The position numbers and the translations under genes are program-made. From a virus (taxonomy: Duplodnaviria > Heunggongvirae > Uroviricota > Caudoviricetes): a stretch of DNA of 26,813 nucleotides. Location: IMG/VR virus record IMGVR_UViG_2537561933_000012; one strand, given 5' to 3'. Shown piece after piece: positions 1 through 22,062 of the stretch. How positions within the stretch are numbered: position 1 is the stretch's first letter; each line of letters starts with the position of its first letter. Below the pieces are notes generated by a model. It was not told the DNA's origin, did no database searches, and was given only the letters and a program-made list of their open reading frames with translations.

Positions 1-267
1 TTACTCTGCAGGTGAAGTCGGCCACTCAATATCAGGTGCGGTTGATGTATCAACACGGTTCAGCAACACCCGATACTTCTTCCAGGCTTCCAGCAACGAG
101 TTTTCTTCCTCCGTTGCGATCTCCAGATCTACAGCATCCTGAAGTGGCGCAATATGCTCACTGAATTCCTGGATGTAGAACTGTGTGGTGACGGTCTTCC
201 AGCCATTCGGCTCCTGCTGTATCGAAGCATACCAGGCTATTTCAATATCGCTATGCTGCGGCAGCAT
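1..267 (-). pseudogene. Tail fibre assembly protein (Tfa), C-terminal fragment, 88 aa ORF
   Basis: Translation ends ...[32 protein letters not shown], matching the recalled C-terminus of lambda Tfa; far too short for a full Tfa (~190 aa). Confidence 0.6.
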
Positions 268-323
268 TTAACCCCTTGTAATTCATCGCCACAATTGATT
301 TAATTCACAAATAAAACTATAAC

Positions 324-992
324 ATGGTGAAATTAATGAAAAAAAACACAGATGATGGGGCTAAAATTTACACACCACTTACCCTAAAGCTTTATGACTG
401 GTGGGTTTTGGGAGTATCAAATCGGCTTGCATGGGGATGTCCTACAAAGGAACACCTTCTTCCACACTTTCTGGAACATTTAGGTAACAACCATCTGGAT
501 ATTGGTGTTGGAACTGGGTTTTACCTTACTCACGTACCTGAGAGTAGTCTGATATCTTTAATGGATTTGAACGAAGCTAGCCTGAACGCGGCATCGACAA
601 GGGCTGGGGAATCAAAAATTAAACATAAAATTAGCCATGATGTTTTTGAACCTTATCCCGCGGCATTACATGGTCAATTTGATTCCATTTCCATGTTTTA
701 CCTTCTTCACTGCCTGCCTGGAAATATATCTACAAAAAGCTGTGTAATACGCAATGCGGCGCAGGCCTTAACTGACGATGGAACTCTATACGGAGCCACA
801 ATTCTTGGTGACGGCGTTGTGCACAATAGCTTCGGTCAAAAACTGATGCGCATTTACAATCAAAAAGGCATCTTTTCAAACACAAAAGATTCCGAAGAAG
901 GCTTAACACATATACTCTCAGAGCATTTCGAGAATGTTAAAACCAAGATTAAAGGTACTGTAGTAATGTTTTCCGCTTCAGGGAAAAAATAG
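324..992 (+). CDS. Class I SAM-dependent methyltransferase (prophage YbcY/YmfD-like), 222 aa
   Basis: Glycine-rich motif I LDIGVGTGFYL; located between two tfa fragments as in the DLP12 tfaD-ybcY-tfaX arrangement (recalled). Confidence 0.7.
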   Translation: MVKLMKKNTDDGAKIYTPLTLKLYDWWVLGVSNRLAWGCPTKEHLLPHFLEHLGNNHLDIGVGTGFYLTHVPESSLISLMDLNEASLNAASTRAGESKIKHKISHDVFEPYPAALHGQFDSISMFYLLHCLPGNISTKSCVIRNAAQALTDDGTLYGATILGDGVVHNSFGQKLMRIYNQKGIFSNTKDSEEGLTHILSEHFENVKTKIKGTVVMFSASGKK

Positions 993-1046
993 CATCCAGC
1001 CGCAGCACGTTCTTGCGCACGACGTGCTGCGGCATAATCTCAATGA

Positions 1047-1172
1047 TTACTCCCTGACAGGGTTCGTAGGCCACTCAATATCAGGTGCAGTTGATGTACC
1101 AACACGGTTCAGCAACCCCCTGCATGCCTTCCATGCCGCCAGCAATGATGTTTCCTCCTTCGTTGCATATAC
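1047..1172 (-). pseudogene. Second Tfa C-terminal remnant (decayed, no start codon), direct repeat of the 3' end of the 1..267 fragment
   Basis: Minus-strand frame reads ...[39 protein letters not shown]-stop, interrupted upstream by stops; about 55 nt near-identical to positions ~30-90. Confidence 0.5.
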
Positions 1173-1439
1173 TGCTCACCTTTTTCACCCACGATTAACC
1201 AACAGCCAGATTCGCAGGCACGCCCCACCACGGCATATTCATACGCTTGCCATGTCCGAACATTTCAATCCAGCGATATTATGCCTGGGGTGTTCAAGCG
1301 CAATGAAGTACGTATTGTATCTTCGCGATTTTTTATAGGCTAATTGACGCGCAATTCTGAGCGGGGAGCGCACAATCAAACAGCACAGAATGGATCGCTG
1401 ATATTTATCCTTTTGTCGGTTTATCAAACAACAAGAGAG

Positions 1440-2654
1440 TCAATAGCGGATTGTCCCTACATCCATTTCTGGCGAATCCACTAACCAGAAATTATCTGGC
1501 TTTACAGCCAGAATGATCCAGGCAGTGTTTGTTGTTGATGACCAGGAAGGCAGCACATCGTATGCCGGGTCATCGCAAGAATCACGATAACCGTACTCAT
1601 TAAAAAGTGGAGCCATTGCTGCCACAAGATTCACCGCATTCAGCTCATTACCCAGCTTGCGCTCAAAAAGTGCCACCCCTGCCGTTCCTTCCACCCACAC
1701 GCCACGGCTGTGACCACTATAACCATAATCAGGGTGGTACGGTGTGTAACCCGTGGTTTCCCTCGTACCAAATAAAAAACGCCCCATATATTTTCGGCAC
1801 TTAGCCGCTTTCTCAGCATCAATATTGGCAACAAACAATCCGCCCCAGGAAGACTGATCCAGCGCCGCTGCGTTGTCATAGTGGGTTGAATGAACCCCCT
1901 GTCGAAATCGGCCTTCATCTTCCACCCACAGACCTCTGATGATGCTCTTTGCCAGCCTGTCAGCCCGCTCACTGAAACCGTCAAATCCCAGCCGTCCCAT
2001 CAGTTCAAACAAAAACCAGATATCAACGTTATGCTCCAGTGCGCACCATTCGGCGACAAAAGTTTCATCAAAATTGCCGTCCACATAACGCCCCTGCCCC
2101 CCTTTATACAGGCCTTCACGCAGGTCGCCTGGTGTGCTCACCAGAAAAGTATCCAGCCAGGCAATGCCTGCCAATAGCTTTTCTCTGACCCGCGCAGTCT
2201 GAGTACCGTCCGGATACTTCTCCAGATAGAAAGCAAGAGCATAATAAACCCATGCCGCATTGCCCAAGCGGTAATAGGTACGCGGTGACATGGCAGACAG
2301 CCTGTTAACAAAAAACTTTACTCCACCGTTTTCATCAACAAGCGCACACAAGCCCGCAACGTATCTTTCTACAGCCTCATGTCGCTGAACCATCAACGCC
2401 AGTGCTGCCAGCGCCTGGTCATACGTGTAACACCGATCTTTCATCCCCCTGATCACTTCGGGGTCTGCGTCCTCCGGCATCCAGTAGCTACGAATGAGCA
2501 GTGGAAACTCCAGCGTTGTGATCCACGCATTATCCTCAATCCGAATAAGACGAAACTGTTTTGCTCCCGTCCAGCAACGTCTGAAATAGAAAGTTCCGTC
2601 ACTATTCAAATTAGCGTCGCCGTTAAAATACTCTCCGGTTGTATAAGCATACAT
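1440..2654 (-). CDS. Hypothetical 404 aa protein at the deletion junction after the truncated portal; possibly a tail-fibre-associated or hydrolase-like cargo protein
   Basis: Long ORF with protein-like composition, directly upstream of the tfa remnant; no motif recognised with confidence. Confidence 0.5.
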   Translation of the reverse strand: MYAYTTGEYFNGDANLNSDGTFYFRRCWTGAKQFRLIRIEDNAWITTLEFPLLIRSYWMPEDADPEVIRGMKDRCYTYDQALAALALMVQRHEAVERYVAGLCALVDENGGVKFFVNRLSAMSPRTYYRLGNAAWVYYALAFYLEKYPDGTQTARVREKLLAGIAWLDTFLVSTPGDLREGLYKGGQGRYVDGNFDETFVAEWCALEHNVDIWFLFELMGRLGFDGFSERADRLAKSIIRGLWVEDEGRFRQGVHSTHYDNAAALDQSSWGGLFVANIDAEKAAKCRKYMGRFLFGTRETTGYTPYHPDYGYSGHSRGVWVEGTAGVALFERKLGNELNAVNLVAAMAPLFNEYGYRDSCDDPAYDVLPSWSSTTNTAWIILAVKPDNFWLVDSPEMDVGTIRY

Positions 2655-3235
2655 ATCGACTTTATACTTTTCAGGTTCAGCCTGTTGCTCTCATCACTGG
2701 TCATGGGAATAAAGTCCGGCTCGAGCGCCTCCAGCCAGAAATGAACACCGGCAGAAGGCGTCAGGCTGTTTATGCGCCCGGAAACCATCTGGGCAAACAC
2801 CTCACCATCGCGCAGCCAGGTACGCAGCATCAGACGTTCCAGCATCGGACGGGTAAACTGCCCGGTGACCTCCGGACTGACAGACCATTCACTCCATCGG
2901 GTGCGTATCTCCGCTGCCAGATCACGGGCAATGGCCCCATTGCGTAATACCGGATGTGGCTCGACAATAATCCCGTTTTTCCCCACCCCCCGTTCTTCCA
3001 GCTTGTCAAATACACCAATGACCAGATCGTGGTTGTTATCAAGGTAACGGGCCTGCTCACGTAACGACACGGCCCCGTACTGGCTTAACTGATCGGCAGT
3101 TCGGTTCTCCCGTCGGGCTTTGTGTGTCCGCGTCGTTTTTACGGCCTCATAAGCCTGGATCACCGCACGGGAACGCAGCCTTGCCGCTTTCCATCCTGGT
3201 GAAAAAACGCCAATCACATCATCAAGAATTGCCAT
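2606..3235 (-). pseudogene. Portal protein, N-terminal fragment (truncated near ~2700)
   Basis: Position immediately after gpW-like gene with ATGA stop/start overlap at 3233-3237 (lambda order A-W-B); ORF frame ends after ~210 codons while the full-length 404 aa ORF starts in another frame. Confidence 0.45.
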
Positions 3236-9461: not shown

Positions 9462-9536
<75 letters not shown>

Positions 9537-9539
9537 ATA

Positions 9540-9615
<76 letters not shown>

Positions 9616-9617
9616 AC

Positions 9618-9694
9618 TGGACCGCCACCGGGGACTCGAACCTCGCACACTCAACTTAAAGAGTTGACGCTCTTTCCTGATGAGCTAGTGGCGG
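9618..9694 (-). tRNA. tRNA of uncertain identity (anticodon positions read UUU, Lys-like, but loop is UCUUUAA with C at position 33)
   Basis: Acceptor CCGCCAC/GTGGCGG, T-loop TTCGAGT, CCA encoded; non-canonical anticodon loop and one A-C mismatch in the T-stem. Confidence 0.5.
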
Positions 9695-9695
9695 T

Positions 9696-9771
9696 TGGTG
9701 GCCCTTGCTGGATTTGAACCAGCGACCTGGCGATTATGAGTCGCTCGCTCTCACCACTGAGCTAAAGGGCC
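9696..9771 (-). tRNA. tRNA-Ile2 (anticodon CAU, ileX/ileZ-like)
   Basis: GGCCCTTTAGCTCAGTGGT...CTCATAA...GGTTCAAATCC...AAGGGCCACCA, close to recalled E. coli ileX. Confidence 0.8.
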
Positions 9772-13339: not shown

Positions 13340-13612
13340 TTACCTCCAGATGCGTTGCTGGAATGTGCGGGACGGACGCGGTGGGCGTTCGGAATAAGGG
13401 AGCCTGACAGAAATTATCCAGTGTCGGAAGTCAGGGCCGAGGTCTTTCTGAAAGTCGTACCCACGCCTGCGGTAGTTCTGAATCAGCCATTCGGCCTGTT
13501 CTTCAGTGCATGGGGCATGCTGGTACCAGTCATATTTGAATGTATGAGAACGCCGCCCGTGCCAGCTGGCAAGGTCGGTATCAGAATTGTGATGTTTGGT
13601 ATTGTGCGCCAT
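13340..13612 (-). CDS. Hypothetical nin-region protein, 90 aa
   Basis: ORF whose stop abuts the DUF968-like start; family not recognised. Confidence 0.4.
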   Translation of the reverse strand: MAHNTKHHNSDTDLASWHGRRSHTFKYDWYQHAPCTEEQAEWLIQNYRRRGYDFQKDLGPDFRHWIISVRLPYSERPPRPSRTFQQRIWR

Positions 13613-13682
13613 CGGTTTTCTCTGCTGGCGCAGCAGGTGCCAGTTGTTCAGGCTGGCCTGTAGATTGTAAACCAGAATACGT

Positions 13683-13710
13683 AAAACAAAAAACCCGCCG
13701 AAGCGGGTTA
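13683..13710 (-). terminator. Rho-independent terminator downstream of the HTH-peptidase gene
   Basis: AACCCGC-CGAA-GCGGGTT hairpin followed on the minus strand by TTTTTTGTTTT; the 23 bp core is identical to 15523-15545. Confidence 0.6.
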
Positions 13711-13713
13711 TGC

Positions 13714-14835
13714 CTAGTGAATTTTGCCTCTAAGAGTTCGGTAAGATTGTAGTGAAACAACATCACCACTTCCTGGCAGTTCATGAACCGCAGGAAGATC
13801 ATCTCCTACTAACTCATAAAAAATGTCCACTTCTATATCCATTTCATCAGCTATACGCTGTGGGTCGTATCCTAACTCTTCAAATAAAAACGATAAAGCC
13901 CGACGGAATAACTCAGGACGCTCATGAGGGATTAGATAATCTTCTTTTTCATCAATAGCTTCCCCTTTCCGTTTCAACCCCATAAATGCAGTTCTGTACT
14001 GCTCATCAGTCAAAAGTCCTAATTGATGAGCCCTGTAAACAATGGCAGCCTTACTTACTTTCCATGTCAACTTAAATTGGCTTAGTCCCTGCCAATTTAT
14101 CCTCCCCCCCACAGGTCTTGGAAAATATTTCGCCATCGACGTTCTGGGAAGCAACAGAGCAGAGGCAAAACGGTTTGCCTGGGATTCAGTTAATCTATCC
14201 CCAGTAGAAATTCCTTCATGAAGAATCAAATGGGCAACCTCATGAGCAATATCAAAGCGTTGCCTACAAGGTGAATTTTTAGCTGTATTTCGAACAATAA
14301 AAGGCCTTCGTAGAGGAACAGACAGTGCATCTACTTCATCCGAAACGGAGTCAAATGAAGTAACAAACGCCCCAAGTTTCTCGGCAAGGCGAGTCATATT
14401 TTCAATTGGGCCAAAGCCTAAGCCCCACTCAATACGACATTTTTCTGCCGCTCGCTCGATATCTTCTTGTGTATGGACACGAAATTCAGGAAATCGAACA
14501 GGTGACAAATTAAGGTTATCTTCAAATACATCAATAAAACGACGATAAAACTCAGCCTTAGCGAGTGTTGATAGCTTCGTTGACATCCTTGTCGAGGCGC
14601 GTTTACGAAAATGTACAATCTCTTCATTAACAGGAGAATGTTCCTGCCCTTCGAAAAAGGCGGGCTTCACGCGCAAAACCTCGGCTAATTTATTTATAAG
14701 CTCTGGGGATGGAGTAGCTGAACCAGACTCCAGTCGCTGTACATACTGGCGTGTTTTTTCAACCTTCTCAGCAACCTGCTCCAGAGATAGCTCGTGATAC
14801 AGACGAGCAAGTCTTAAATTAGTACCGTTAAACAC
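13714..14835 (-). CDS. XRE-family HTH fused to ImmA/IrrE-type (M78-like) zinc metallopeptidase domain, 373 aa, GTG start
   Basis: N-terminal HTH (LSLEQVAEKVEKTRQYVQRLESG); HEXXH motif HEVAHLILH; GGGTGA Shine-Dalgarno-like sequence before the start. Confidence 0.75.
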   Translation of the reverse strand: MFNGTNLRLARLYHELSLEQVAEKVEKTRQYVQRLESGSATPSPELINKLAEVLRVKPAFFEGQEHSPVNEEIVHFRKRASTRMSTKLSTLAKAEFYRRFIDVFEDNLNLSPVRFPEFRVHTQEDIERAAEKCRIEWGLGFGPIENMTRLAEKLGAFVTSFDSVSDEVDALSVPLRRPFIVRNTAKNSPCRQRFDIAHEVAHLILHEGISTGDRLTESQANRFASALLLPRTSMAKYFPRPVGGRINWQGLSQFKLTWKVSKAAIVYRAHQLGLLTDEQYRTAFMGLKRKGEAIDEKEDYLIPHERPELFRRALSFLFEELGYDPQRIADEMDIEVDIFYELVGDDLPAVHELPGSGDVVSLQSYRTLRGKIH

Positions 14836-14845
14836 ATTTCACCCA

Positions 14846-15439
14846 CTATTTGCTATTTTGTTTCTTTTCCTTCTCAGTCTTAGACGCACTGATAGGTTCT
14901 AGTTCGATAGGTACCGGTGCTGGAGGTACATCATCGACAGAGTTCAGCATAACAACACGGTCCGCACCATATGTCCAAGTTGACACGATCTCACCAAACA
15001 CGTTATAGCCATTAAAAATGACTCTACCCCCCTCGCCTTCAAATTCAGGCTTTTCAACCACAAAGCGATGCATAGTTGGAGTAGTCTCCTCTGACTCAAA
15101 GAGTCGATCAGCATCATTTCTTTTGAAAAAACCGCGTTTCTTGGGGTTATCTGCGTCATCAGTAAAGAAACGAATAGGGACATTCCCAATTGAAAACGTA
15201 AGATCCATGCCAGGATTAAGTAGTCTTAACCAGTCATATGTCTTTCGTACGCACATTTGTAGCAACGCCTGCCGCTGACGCCCAAATGTACAACCACCAC
15301 GAGTGTAATTATCATCATAGGGCGATGACAATAACTCATGAGTAATATCCTGTATCCTGAGCAACTCCTCAGCTATAATGGTTAAACGCACCTCTGTTAA
15401 CTCAGGAAAGAACTCCCAAGGGAATGGATGGTTCTGCAT
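14846..15439 (-). CDS. Hypothetical protein, ~197 aa, upstream partner of the HTH-peptidase gene (candidate effector)
   Basis: ORF ending 10 nt before the HTH-peptidase start; ATG at 15439 with GGAG about 10 nt upstream; no family recognised. Confidence 0.55.
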   Translation of the reverse strand: MQNHPFPWEFFPELTEVRLTIIAEELLRIQDITHELLSSPYDDNYTRGGCTFGRQRQALLQMCVRKTYDWLRLLNPGMDLTFSIGNVPIRFFTDDADNPKKRGFFKRNDADRLFESEETTPTMHRFVVEKPEFEGEGGRVIFNGYNVFGEIVSTWTYGADRVVMLNSVDDVPPAPVPIELEPISASKTEKEKKQNSK

Positions 15440-15520
15440 AGACACTTCTCCGCCTAATCCGTGCAAAAAACGACTTTTGTCAACCAAGATATTGGTGCAT
15501 ATTCATAATTTTGTCAACCA

Positions 15521-15546
15521 ATAAAAAACCCGCCGAAGCGGGTTAA
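15521..15546 (-). terminator. Rho-independent terminator upstream of the two-gene cassette
   Basis: Same AACCCGCCGAAGCGGGTT hairpin plus T-run as 13683-13710. Confidence 0.6.
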
Positions 15547-15889
15547 GTGCGGGTGCGTTGAGGATGCCTGACACATCAGAGGTGGCGAGGGATTTCTCCC
15601 TCGCCTGGTCTCTTACTCCTCAGGTTCGTAAGCTGTGAAGACAGCGACCTCCGTCTGGCCGGTTCGGATTCGTACCTCGCAGAGGTCTTTCCTCGTTATC
15701 AGTACCGCAACAATTTCGTATTCATGATTCATTTCATCTAAAACAGTTCATAAACCTAAATAAATTCAAAAAATCACAACACAAATAAATATAAATTATC
15801 TCATCCTGAAGAACGATAGGATTATTTAGAATTAATAACAATTAATGTAACAATAATTATCAATCCAGATTATTCAAATAAAATGTCAT

Positions 15890-16936
15890 TTACCATATGG
15901 AGTTGTGAATGAACTTTAATTCATTTTTTATTTTGTTAACAGATAAATTCACGGATGTCCTAACTCTATTCACAGTCATTGCATCTCCTGGATTTAACAA
16001 CTCTAATGGTTTAGACTTAGCACTTGACATTCTGCCACTACCCAGAAAATCATCAAGAATCACAATGTGATTATTAGGATCATCTGTTGTAAAATTACTA
16101 ATATTTTGTCGAATTACCTCTCTTACAGCTTCGATGTACATTTTTGTCTGTTGATTTGGTTTATTCCTTGCTCCTGCCACTGTTGACCATCCGCAATGGG
16201 TAATAACCACCATCTGAATTTTTGGTGTATGGCCATCAGACGGCATTATCTTTCTAAATTCTGATGTTGGTTTAGTCAGAGTATCAATAAGTAATCTTAA
16301 TGAATTAATCGATTGCTGATCTGTCCTCACTGGAACTATTAAAGCATCTGTTGCATGCCAAGATAAATGCGTCGCTCCAGAGAAAAAAGGTGATGTATCA
16401 ATTAACGCTTTTGTAGTACCAGTTTCAACCATTTCTCTGGCTATTTCTTTCTTCAGAGAAAAAAGAATTGTATCAATAACAACCTGCTGAGTAGCCCCAG
16501 AAATTGTTCTGGCTTGAGCCAGAGCATTCGCCATTTGCGTAGGTAGAAGATAAAGTTGACTATCAGATTGAATAAAATAGTTATTCTTGCCCGCAAACCA
16601 AGCATTAGTTGATGATACTAGCTTTGCAGCACGCGTTGCAAATCCAAGCCCTGGAACAAAATAAGGCATTAAGAGGTCATTTGCAGTTGTGCTAGACGAA
16701 GATGCATAATTATTGTCAAAAAAATATGATAAATTTCCTTGCGGGCACGTATCCACGATTAATGCGTTATCCGCCAAATATGACAGATTAAAAGTTAAAG
16801 ATGTCTTACCAATGCCTCCCCGTAAATTACATACTGTATATTTATCATATTTCGGCAAATTAAGACTTCTTACATTACCGTCAGCAACTTCGAATTGACG
16901 CTCTATCAGAGCATTAACATTTGATTCACTAGTCAT
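15890..16936 (-). CDS. ParA/MinD-like P-loop ATPase (deviant Walker A), 348 aa, in an AT-rich island
   Basis: Walker A-like NLRGGIGKTS near the N-terminus; GGTGG Shine-Dalgarno-like sequence before the ATG; flanking DNA conspicuously AT-rich. Confidence 0.65.
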   Translation of the reverse strand: MTSESNVNALIERQFEVADGNVRSLNLPKYDKYTVCNLRGGIGKTSLTFNLSYLADNALIVDTCPQGNLSYFFDNNYASSSSTTANDLLMPYFVPGLGFATRAAKLVSSTNAWFAGKNNYFIQSDSQLYLLPTQMANALAQARTISGATQQVVIDTILFSLKKEIAREMVETGTTKALIDTSPFFSGATHLSWHATDALIVPVRTDQQSINSLRLLIDTLTKPTSEFRKIMPSDGHTPKIQMVVITHCGWSTVAGARNKPNQQTKMYIEAVREVIRQNISNFTTDDPNNHIVILDDFLGSGRMSSAKSKPLELLNPGDAMTVNRVRTSVNLSVNKIKNELKFIHNSIW

Positions 16937-21087: not shown

Positions 21088-21462
21088 ATGGAATTTAAAG
21101 ATTTACCAATGCAATTCCAGGAAATGGCAGCGAATATAGTTCGTTCCCAACTGGCGACTCTTGACCTGAGTACCGTAGAAAAAGAAACCATCGATACTAT
21201 ATCCGGTAACGTGCGTCGTGCCTTTATCGGTCTGTACGAAGAGAAGCAGCTCTCTGATAACCAGGATTTACATGAAAAATACCTCCTGGAATTAATGGAT
21301 ATCATTGATAAGGGGTTTGGCTTGTTAATGAAAAAGAAAGGGATTCGGATAGAACCCCTTAAGAACCATTTTACTGAGTGCGGCATTAATCCCAGCGATT
21401 TAAACCATCCCGCCACAGATGGGAGTGTTACAGTTAGCCATGAAATTTCGATTAATCATTAA
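21088..21462 (+). CDS. Hypothetical protein, 124 aa, inserted between ydfC and DicF
   Basis: ORF with ACGAGG Shine-Dalgarno; no family recognised. Confidence 0.5.
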   Translation: MEFKDLPMQFQEMAANIVRSQLATLDLSTVEKETIDTISGNVRRAFIGLYEEKQLSDNQDLHEKYLLELMDIIDKGFGLLMKKKGIRIEPLKNHFTECGINPSDLNHPATDGSVTVSHEISINH

Positions 21463-21673
21463 AATCAATTGCACTTTCAATAAGTGATGCCATCTCATTG
21501 CATTTTGTTGAATTCATCTTACGCAATGAGTCACAAATTTCCGCTGGCTTTGATGACGCAGGCAACTTAGCAGCAAGTAGCATAATTGCCGTTTTTATAG
21601 CAGTGAGCTCATCCGCAAGTCCAGCAGGAGAAACATCGTGGTTAAACTGGATATTTACATTTTTACTAGTCAT
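21452..21673 (-). CDS. Hypothetical protein, 73 aa, convergent with and overlapping the 124 aa gene by 11 nt
   Basis: ATG at 21673 preceded by a strong AGGAGG Shine-Dalgarno 5 nt upstream. Confidence 0.5.
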   Translation of the reverse strand: MTSKNVNIQFNHDVSPAGLADELTAIKTAIMLLAAKLPASSKPAEICDSLRKMNSTKCNEMASLIESAIDFND

Positions 21674-22004
21674 TTCACCCTCCTGAGGGTTGGTAATTAA
21701 GGAGTTCTCCACGGGTCAGGTGGAGTGCGTGCGCCGGACACGGGTGAGCATCCGGCACTGGCAGTTTACTGGAAGGATATATCCCTGAAAAGTCAGGACA
21801 TAACGCGAAAGCGCACGGCGAAGTTATTCTGTCTGTACGGTGTCGTTAAATTTAATTCGACCGTGCGCTTCCGGTTGTGGCAATCCGCGAAATGGCGCGG
21901 CGGTAAGTATGGCGGGGTTATTCCTTCCCCGTTGAGGACACCGGGTTGTCAGGTTGACCATACGCTTAAGTGACAACCCCGCTGCAACGCCCTCTGTTAT
22001 CAAT

Positions 22005-22062
22005 TTTCTGGTGGCGTTTAGCGGTATCAGTTTTACTCCGTGACTGCTCTGCCGCCCTTTTT
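22005..22062 (+). ncRNA. dicF: DicF small RNA with intrinsic terminator
   Basis: TTTCTGGTGGCGTTTAGCGGTATCAGTTTTACTCCGTGACTGCTCTGCCGCCCTTTTT, two mismatches to the recalled K-12 DicF; upstream of dicB. Confidence 0.75.

Follow-up and report, generated by a model that had tools for sequence, protein, structure and literature searches.

The window analysed here is the whole 26,813-nucleotide (nt) stretch of IMG/VR virus record IMGVR_UViG_2537561933_000012 (Caudoviricetes), and this study concerns the two-gene cassette at its positions 13,683 to 15,546. On the minus strand, a gene for a 197-residue protein is followed by a co-directional gene for a 373-residue protein, with 10 nt between the stop of the first and the start of the second. 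The initial annotation had described the same two open reading frames, the second as a helix-turn-helix (HTH) domain fused to an M78 peptidase, and both the positions and the Pfam domains agree with it. RefSeq has the same two coding sequences, labelled 'hypothetical protein' and 'helix-turn-helix domain-containing protein'. With the names used below, the genes are as follows.

14846-15439, minus strand: rmrT, 197-aa toxin, ATG start; PADLOC RmrT, phrog_5786, the same as WP_001179382.1
13714-14835, minus strand: rmrA, 373-aa antidote, GTG start; the same as WP_000481765.1 (= E101_02644)

The PADLOC RmrT model PDLC03929 matches the 197-aa protein at 5.1e-92 over positions 1-197 of 198, and the RmrA model PDLC03943 matches the 373-aa protein at 4.3e-201 over positions 1-368 of 370; the latter is also matched by all other PADLOC RmrA models. 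Two parts of the RosmerTA definition of DefenseFinder and PADLOC are found at the locus, namely an XRE-type HTH and an M78 Zn-peptidase in a single protein, and an adjacent same-strand gene matching a catalogued RmrT family. The initial annotation, which had taken the Rosmer RmrA component as a model for the second gene, was well directed, since PADLOC calls RmrT as well as RmrA. We propose that the pair is very probably a RosmerTA toxin-antitoxin (TA) module that belongs to the Vmi480/Vmi470 subfamily and acts in abortive infection; it is low-GC cargo, which a prophage carries in its hokD-DUF968 (ydfU) slot. The system is already known: it is catalogued in PADLOC and DefenseFinder, and an allele with an identical antidote and a near-identical toxin has been studied experimentally.

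That allele is the prophage TA module E101_02645/E101_02644, through which clpP is essential in Escherichia coli strains E101 and TA054 (Rousset et al., 2021, Nat Microbiol; bioRxiv 10.1101/2020.05.25.114553). In E101, the toxin E101_02645 is WP_001179380.1 and the antidote E101_02644 is WP_000481765.1; suppressors of the clpP requirement had either excised the prophage or acquired the toxin substitution T46S, and the module put into K-12 made clpP essential there, except with the T46S allele (bioRxiv 10.1101/2020.05.25.114553). The window module has the same antidote accession and a toxin at least 99% alike (WP_001179382.1), both modules are prophage-borne, and nothing material is different between them, while the two toxins differ by at least one residue because their RefSeq accessions differ. 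T46 is present in the window RmrT, within the best-conserved motif of the family, DDNYTR. The upstream 197-aa protein had been put forward as the candidate effector, and its match to the published toxin of the E101 module bears this out.

The E101 pair was reported to share 33% and 42% identity with Vmi480 and Vmi470, respectively (Rousset et al., bioRxiv 10.1101/2020.05.25.114553). Vmi480 kills E. coli, co-expressed Vmi470 rescues the cells, and vmi470 is not deletable alone (Luo et al., 2015, PMC4671572). This Vibrio mimicus pair of MGIVmi1 resembles the window module in having the toxin gene first (198 aa), an HTH plus Zn-peptidase antidote (362 aa) and its own promoter, with a gap of 5 nt between the genes, but is carried by a mobilisable genomic island, whereas the carrier here is a prophage. 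The papers of both Rousset et al. and Luo et al. are cited in the RosmerTA definition of Millman et al. (2022). For this RosmerTA subtype, TA behaviour and ClpP dependence are established by the published work, and anti-phage defence is suggested by analogy with the wider Rosmer family.

The leader of rmrT contains an exact repeat, TGGTTGACAAAA on the minus strand, at 15475-15486 and 15509-15520 (chance expectation 0.14; two matches were reached in 1 of 100 shuffles). The initial annotation had reported it as an 11-bp direct repeat; its two copies lie where they had been placed, but the repeat is 12 nt long, extends to 13 exact nt as TTGGTTGACAAAA, and is one arm of a 23-bp bipartite box, TTGAC(A/G)-N12-(T)GCA(C/A). 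Each box is an imperfect dyad, TTGACAAA / TTTGCAC, and the pattern TTGAC-N13-TGCAM has two occurrences only within the window, against 0.16 expected, namely the boxes O1 and O2. The leader features, in the direction of transcription, are as follows.

15495-15517, minus strand: box O1, TTGACAAAATTATGAATATGCAC, putative RmrA operator, which includes the -35 hexamer TTGACA (15512-15517)
15489-15494, minus strand: putative -10 hexamer CAATAT, 17 nt past the -35 hexamer, read from the sequence
15461-15483, minus strand: box O2, TTGACAAAAGTCGTTTTTTGCAC, again the bipartite box, placed 34 bp downstream of O1 so that it overlaps the predicted transcription start
15446-15451, minus strand: Shine-Dalgarno sequence GGAGAA of rmrT, 6 nt before the ATG, read from the sequence

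The box pair, 31-34 bp apart, is present in 32 of 32 homologous loci, which range from Enterobacterales to Betaproteobacteria, Xanthomonadales and Methylomonas. The consensus of 23 distinct leaders with 34-bp spacing is ggTTGACAaAa.....aat.tGCAc.A..AT...ggTTGACAAa.tt....tttTGCAc, and the spacers and flanks around the boxes have diverged. Between the boxes, positions A2 and A5-T6 of the -10 hexamer are kept across these 23 diverged leaders (consensus c.A..AT). No conserved -10 follows box O2 among the aligned leaders, and therefore O2 is not a second promoter. We infer that rmrTA has its own sigma-70 promoter (TTGACA, 17 nt, CAATAT) just after the hok terminator, and the two boxes are probably RmrA operators for negative autoregulation, a binding predicted from the sequence. 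The earlier suggestion that the leader repeats are plausible HTH binding sites thereby gains strong support from phylogenetic footprinting. As judged by sequence conservation, the boxes overlap the -35 and spacer and the transcription start in all 32 loci, a layout that may correspond to the operator of an autoregulated two-gene operon, as in classical type II systems.

RmrA comprises an XRE HTH (residues 1-65), a linker, an M78 Zn-peptidase (about 120-270) and a helical C-terminal part, and Pfam assigns HTH_3 to residues 7-61 (1.5e-12) and Peptidase_M78 to residues 151-269 (8.4e-17). The lambda-repressor-type HTH is thus joined to an intact ImmA/IrrE/CapP-type zinc peptidase, of which the HExxH motif is H198-E199-x-x-H202 and a further glutamate, E217, lies in E-x3-NRF; H198, E199, H202 and E217 are invariant in 49 RmrA sequences down to 50% identity. 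Likewise invariant in those sequences is H75-F76-R77, in the extended, unstructured linker between HTH and peptidase (window about 14605-14613, minus strand), and this HFR motif may serve as a site of self-cleavage or as a pseudo-substrate. The NCBIfam spr1629 antitoxin model matches RmrA at 4e-51, under the model cut-off. The structure model of RmrA has a pLDDT of 91.8 and fold matches to three groups of structures, and as modelled the protein appears to combine a repressor and an M78 protease, elsewhere a pair of proteins, in one chain that ends in an additional helical part. In CapH/CapP, ImmR/ImmA and DdrO/IrrE (PprI), the repressor and the protease are separate proteins that share these folds, whereas they are fused in one open reading frame in the window. 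These repressor-protease switches therefore resemble RmrA in architecture, and the resemblance is not membership; the window module also differs from them in its post-transcriptional neutralisation and in its known trigger, which is loss of ClpXP and not DNA damage or single-stranded DNA.

An alternative is a stress switch that, like ImmR/ImmA, DdrO/IrrE or CapH/CapP, works by transcription alone: RmrA would do no more than repress the effector gene, and upon DNA damage or some other signal its peptidase would remove its own HTH, by which the effector is induced. The conserved operator-like boxes over the promoter speak for such a switch, as do the invariant HFR in the linker, a potential self-cleavage site, and the HTH cleavage also suggested by NetFlax (PMC10440598). 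However, antidotes of this kind are effective from heterologous promoters, as with Vmi480/Vmi470 under PBAD and with RipA/RipB (Spr1630/Spr1629) of Streptococcus pneumoniae in trans, so that neutralisation must be at least partly post-transcriptional, and the known activating perturbation is the loss of ClpP or ClpX, not DNA damage. A DNA-damage input was neither shown by this analysis nor found in the literature. A purely transcriptional switch is therefore improbable in our view, but it is compatible with the RosmerTA reading in that autoregulation may coexist with neutralisation at the protein level.

The toxin RmrT is, by sequence, a soluble acidic protein (isoelectric point 5.1) with no transmembrane or hydrophobic segment (maximum KD19 0.82), and its AlphaFold2 model has a pLDDT of 82; residues 186-197 make up a disordered tail rich in lysine. 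Pfam and NCBIfam scans gave zero matches, the RmrT alignment, run as a profile against the sequences in PDB, gave nothing up to E = 10, and its PHROG match, phrog_5786, is not a PHROG of known function. A match to a phage structural or replication protein, which the initial annotation had set against its own proposal, was thus absent from the Pfam, PHROG, NCBIfam and PDB-sequence searches. A word-indexed search gave 80 homologues, which are about 197-208 aa long and have a lowest identity of 39%, and an exhaustive profile search found 422 representatives of 50%-identity clusters at E <= 0.001, nearly all of about 200 aa. Ten remote or longer members put through Pfam showed no informative domain, and from their sequences the longer members look like gene-call chimeras. 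The invariant residues of the family are P7, L19, D42, Y45, R54, R90, F92, D94, D95, P99, D111, L113, R125, F126 and W155. A clamp-binding motif in the conserved VDQLF segment, considered by analogy with RipA and DnaN, was rejected, as the segment does not fit QL[SD]LF and reads DRLF in the window allele.

Other Rosmer systems share the architecture of the window module more than its toxin. The RosmerTA of E. coli OLC-716 has been verified for defence, and an rmrA deletion was unobtainable there (Millman et al., 2022). Its RmrA has the same architecture as the window RmrA (31% identity, 2e-38), and its gene order is likewise toxin then antidote. Its RmrT (239 aa) and the window RmrT gave a BLASTP E value of 7, and hhalign of the family profiles gave a probability of 0.39% and an E value of 0.16. 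Therefore, as the OLC-716 toxin is unrelated by sequence, its defence phenotype is not simply transferable to the window module. A remote homology of the window RmrT to the OLC-716 RmrT, or to the other Rosmer toxin found in the same prophage slot (see below), was considered on the basis of a co-linear [YT][TS]RG...[FY]G alignment and rejected, as the alignment was without statistical support. The RmrT(D5)/RmrA pair of Gordonia phage Kita is a phage-encoded Rosmer system with shown defence, and its toxin localises to the membrane and depolarises it (NetFlax, PMC10440598). It shares the Rosmer architecture, but a membrane-localised toxin contrasts with the acidic window RmrT and its lack of a hydrophobic segment. 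The survey statement that RmrT depolarises membranes should not be extended to the window RmrT family, which is soluble and has no relationship to the RmrTs investigated to date.

Additionally, RipA/RipB is a Rosmer-type pair like that of the window; its neutralisation is ClpX-dependent, and RipA targets the DnaN clamp (10.1101/2025.09.02.673660). The DnaN target is a feature of RipA, and no RipA-type match for the window RmrT was seen in the Pfam and NCBIfam scans. Clp dependence of Rosmer has also been reported in Pectobacteriaceae, where the antidote gene is essential (10.64898/2025.12.09.693261). PD-lambda-2 shares an Xre-HTH/peptidase fusion beside a toxin-like gene, and itself provides phage defence, but it consists of three genes, its first component is of the HigB type, and its HTH-peptidase is itself toxic (Vassallo et al., 2022, PMC9519451).

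The cassette lies between two exact copies of a 23-bp repeat, AAAAAACCCGCCGAAGCGGGTTA, for which no match was found in 100 shuffles, even at 3 mismatches; the repeat extends to 25 of 26 nt, and the copies are spaced 1835 bp apart. In a terminator scan, both copies were called as intrinsic terminators of the minus strand, in which a 7-bp stem closed by a TTCG loop precedes a T-run.

13688-13710, minus strand: downstream terminator copy, 3 nt past the rmrA stop; end of the rmrTA transcript and downstream boundary of the cargo
15523-15545, minus strand: upstream terminator copy (scan hit 15544-15527), the hairpin and T-run at the 3' end of the truncated hok locus; the cargo is bounded here on its upstream side

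The initial annotation had the pair bracketed by two identical terminators, and this holds for the identity of the copies and their nature as terminators; the upstream copy, however, as read from the sequence, belongs to the neighbouring hok locus and not to the cassette. The cassette is poorer in GC (41-45%) than the phage genes on its flanks (52-57%). The slot that contains it (window 13340-15715) is bordered by hokD on one side and by a small open reading frame and DUF968/ydfU on the other; these borders are found in thousands of genomes, with variable content between them, as in the following loci.

Locus L002: nothing
Locus L005 (K-12 Qin): rem
Locus L003: a different Rosmer subtype (RmrT PDLC03933, 7.5e-10; RmrA PDLC03947, 5.5e-102)
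Locus L004: a split HTH + ImmA/IrrE pair
Locus H61: a RelE/ParE + HTH pair

From these sequence comparisons, the hokD-ydfU slot reads as a cargo hotspot of E. coli lambdoid prophages. The empty site L002 has one copy of the hairpin and the same hok-side flank as the window, whereas the filled sites (the window, L003 and L004) have a hairpin copy on either side of the cargo. The left flank of the single hairpin in L002 is that of the left copy in the window, and its right flank is that of the right copy, and therefore the crossover took place within the hok terminator hairpin, which is compatible with an insertion at this point as well as with an exact deletion between the two repeat copies.

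On the hok side, hokD is a pseudogene without its N-terminus (window about 15613-15714, minus strand, RefSeq annotation). The Rfam model isrK (RF01394), an Hfq-binding small RNA, matches below threshold over 15523-15604 on the minus strand (31.2 bits, where the gathering score is 50; E 4.9e-4; full model 1-77), a stretch that takes in the end of the truncated hok on its 3' side together with the upstream terminator copy; the match may reflect homology of the hok mRNA 3' region with the Gifsy-1 isrK locus. Directly upstream of hokD is a 28%-GC stretch (from 15700), followed by a 348-aa open reading frame for a ParA-family ATPase at 15890-16936, which is matched by Pfam AAA_31 at 8e-10 and phrog_164 at 3e-30, its PADLOC PRTase_III-A/ShosT matches being weak. 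This ParA region appears to be another low-GC cargo, distinct from the first, and its insertion appears to have truncated hok.

The window as a whole is a degraded, cryptic lambdoid (Qin-like) prophage of E. coli, inserted between potB and potC. The copy in strain 99-3165 (locus L001) is 99.9% identical to the window and served as the annotation source; across the 1864-bp cassette, the single difference is at window position 15029, C here and A there, and is synonymous in rmrT. Annotated in that copy are the terminase, lysis genes, four tRNAs, Q, RusA, DUF968, the hok pseudogene, ParA, replication genes, the immunity pair, dicB, a recE-like exonuclease, xis and int. The prophage is cryptic because its tail, portal and tail-fibre genes are truncated. 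The four-tRNA cluster (window 9462-9771, minus strand), downstream of the Q antiterminator, comprises Gly-tcc, Thr-tgt, Lys-ttt and a CAT-anticodon tRNA that is Met according to ARAGORN and Ile according to RefSeq. The early-left region contains an inserted IS1B-family element, with the ydfABC-like genes on one side of it and dicB on the other (window about 21337-22034, L001 21655-22352).

Pairs of an HTH protein and an ImmA-like peptidase control the induction of ICEBs1 and of some phages. In a prophage, and with the cassette placed between the replication genes and the Q/nin-type genes, the pair might by this token be a lysogeny or induction circuit of the repressor/antirepressor type, or the 197-aa protein an ordinary replication or structural protein. 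However, the divergent HTH immunity pair of the prophage itself is separate and located elsewhere (L001 19799-20552), related prophages have no cassette or have unrelated cargo at the same site, and the same toxin-antidote pair occurs on plasmids and in non-phage contexts, while RmrT has no PHROG of known function, Pfam family or PDB sequence match. The empty-site comparison in particular largely refutes this alternative, which we regard as hardly credible.

Of 5426 complete E. coli genomes, 23 contain the cassette at an identity of at least 99%, and a 3.5-kb query of the cassette with both flanks is covered to at least 80% in 22 genomes, so that nearly all carriers share this context; the family was absent from the isolated-phage genome collection, which contained no close relative. 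Beyond E. coli, the two genes stay next to each other across Proteobacteria, the toxin gene first, with an RmrA homologue immediately downstream of the RmrT homologue in 31 of 32 genome loci, the exception (L037) having only the first 76 residues of the toxin. The family further occurs in 22 plasmid records of PLSDB, and its presence on plasmids, on the mobilisable island MGIVmi1 and in prophages would also suit a selfish addiction module, which maintains its prophage, plasmid or island by post-segregational killing and has no defence role. That the antidote gene is essential wherever the system is present, and that defence by this toxin family is argued from other Rosmer systems, speak for this alternative too. 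Against it, three of four clpP-knockdown suppressors in E101 had lost the prophage and stayed viable, which argues against strong post-segregational killing (bioRxiv 10.1101/2020.05.25.114553); other defence or TA cargos, among them a second Rosmer subtype, occupy the slot in neighbouring alleles; and Rosmer systems with other toxins defend against phages. We consider pure addiction unlikely, though with a real chance of being correct.

Several points weigh against the RosmerTA reading with its autoregulation and abortive-infection role. First, in the published data the ClpP dependence runs opposite to classical type II TA logic, by which Lon or Clp degrades a labile antitoxin and protease activity thereby sets the toxin free; as loss of Clp activates toxicity, the module is not a classical type II system. 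Second, we found no phage-defence phenotype for the RmrT family of the window in the literature, and the verified defence systems, OLC-716 and Kita, have toxins with no detectable similarity to the window RmrT. In the leader, a strict sigma-70 consensus scan fails to call the rmrTA promoter, because the -10 hexamer matches at 3 of 6 positions, and the promoter call draws on cross-species conservation rather than on that scan; moreover, as a consensus -35 lies inside O1, the conservation of this box could partly reflect RNA polymerase and not RmrA.

Based on the findings in this work and the published data, a working model of the RosmerTA module can be outlined. RmrA would repress the operon through the two 23-bp boxes (TTGACAAA-N-TTTGCAC), one over the -35 and spacer and the other over the transcription start. 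In the uninfected cell, RmrA together with ClpXP would hold the soluble, cytoplasmic RmrT inactive or degraded, with the RmrA peptidase co-operating with ClpXP to inactivate or clear the toxin. Phage infection, perhaps through disturbed RmrA or ClpXP-dependent turnover, would release RmrT, and the free toxin could then cause arrest or death of the cell, by which the lysogen population would be protected. The reversed Clp logic raises the possibility that Rosmer-type modules monitor ClpXP function.

A bolder proposal, which we hold to be unlikely and offer as speculation, is that the RmrT family could represent a new kind of toxin, an enzyme acting in the cytoplasm and perhaps a PD-(D/E)xK-like nuclease that has diverged strongly; its inactivation would need both the RmrA peptidase and ClpXP, with the module guarding ClpXP and the hok-terminator hairpin acting as a joint for cargo swaps. 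If this were true, a phage that inhibits or saturates ClpXP, or attacks RmrA, would free RmrT and bring about abortive infection, and the hairpin would be a recombination joint by which TA and defence cargos are swapped among lambdoid prophages.

In conclusion, this work is an annotation rather than a discovery, namely that two genes unnamed in RefSeq are a catalogued defence/TA system. Its minor additions are the conserved double operator predicted in the leader, the terminator-bounded cargo slot with its comparison of empty and filled sites, and the orphan toxin family. The double operator could serve as a ready-made regulatory assay for work on the Rosmer mechanism, and the allele, which makes clpP conditionally essential in some E. 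coli, bears on essentiality screens and on anti-ClpP strategies in carrier strains of the enterotoxigenic E. coli (ETEC) type.

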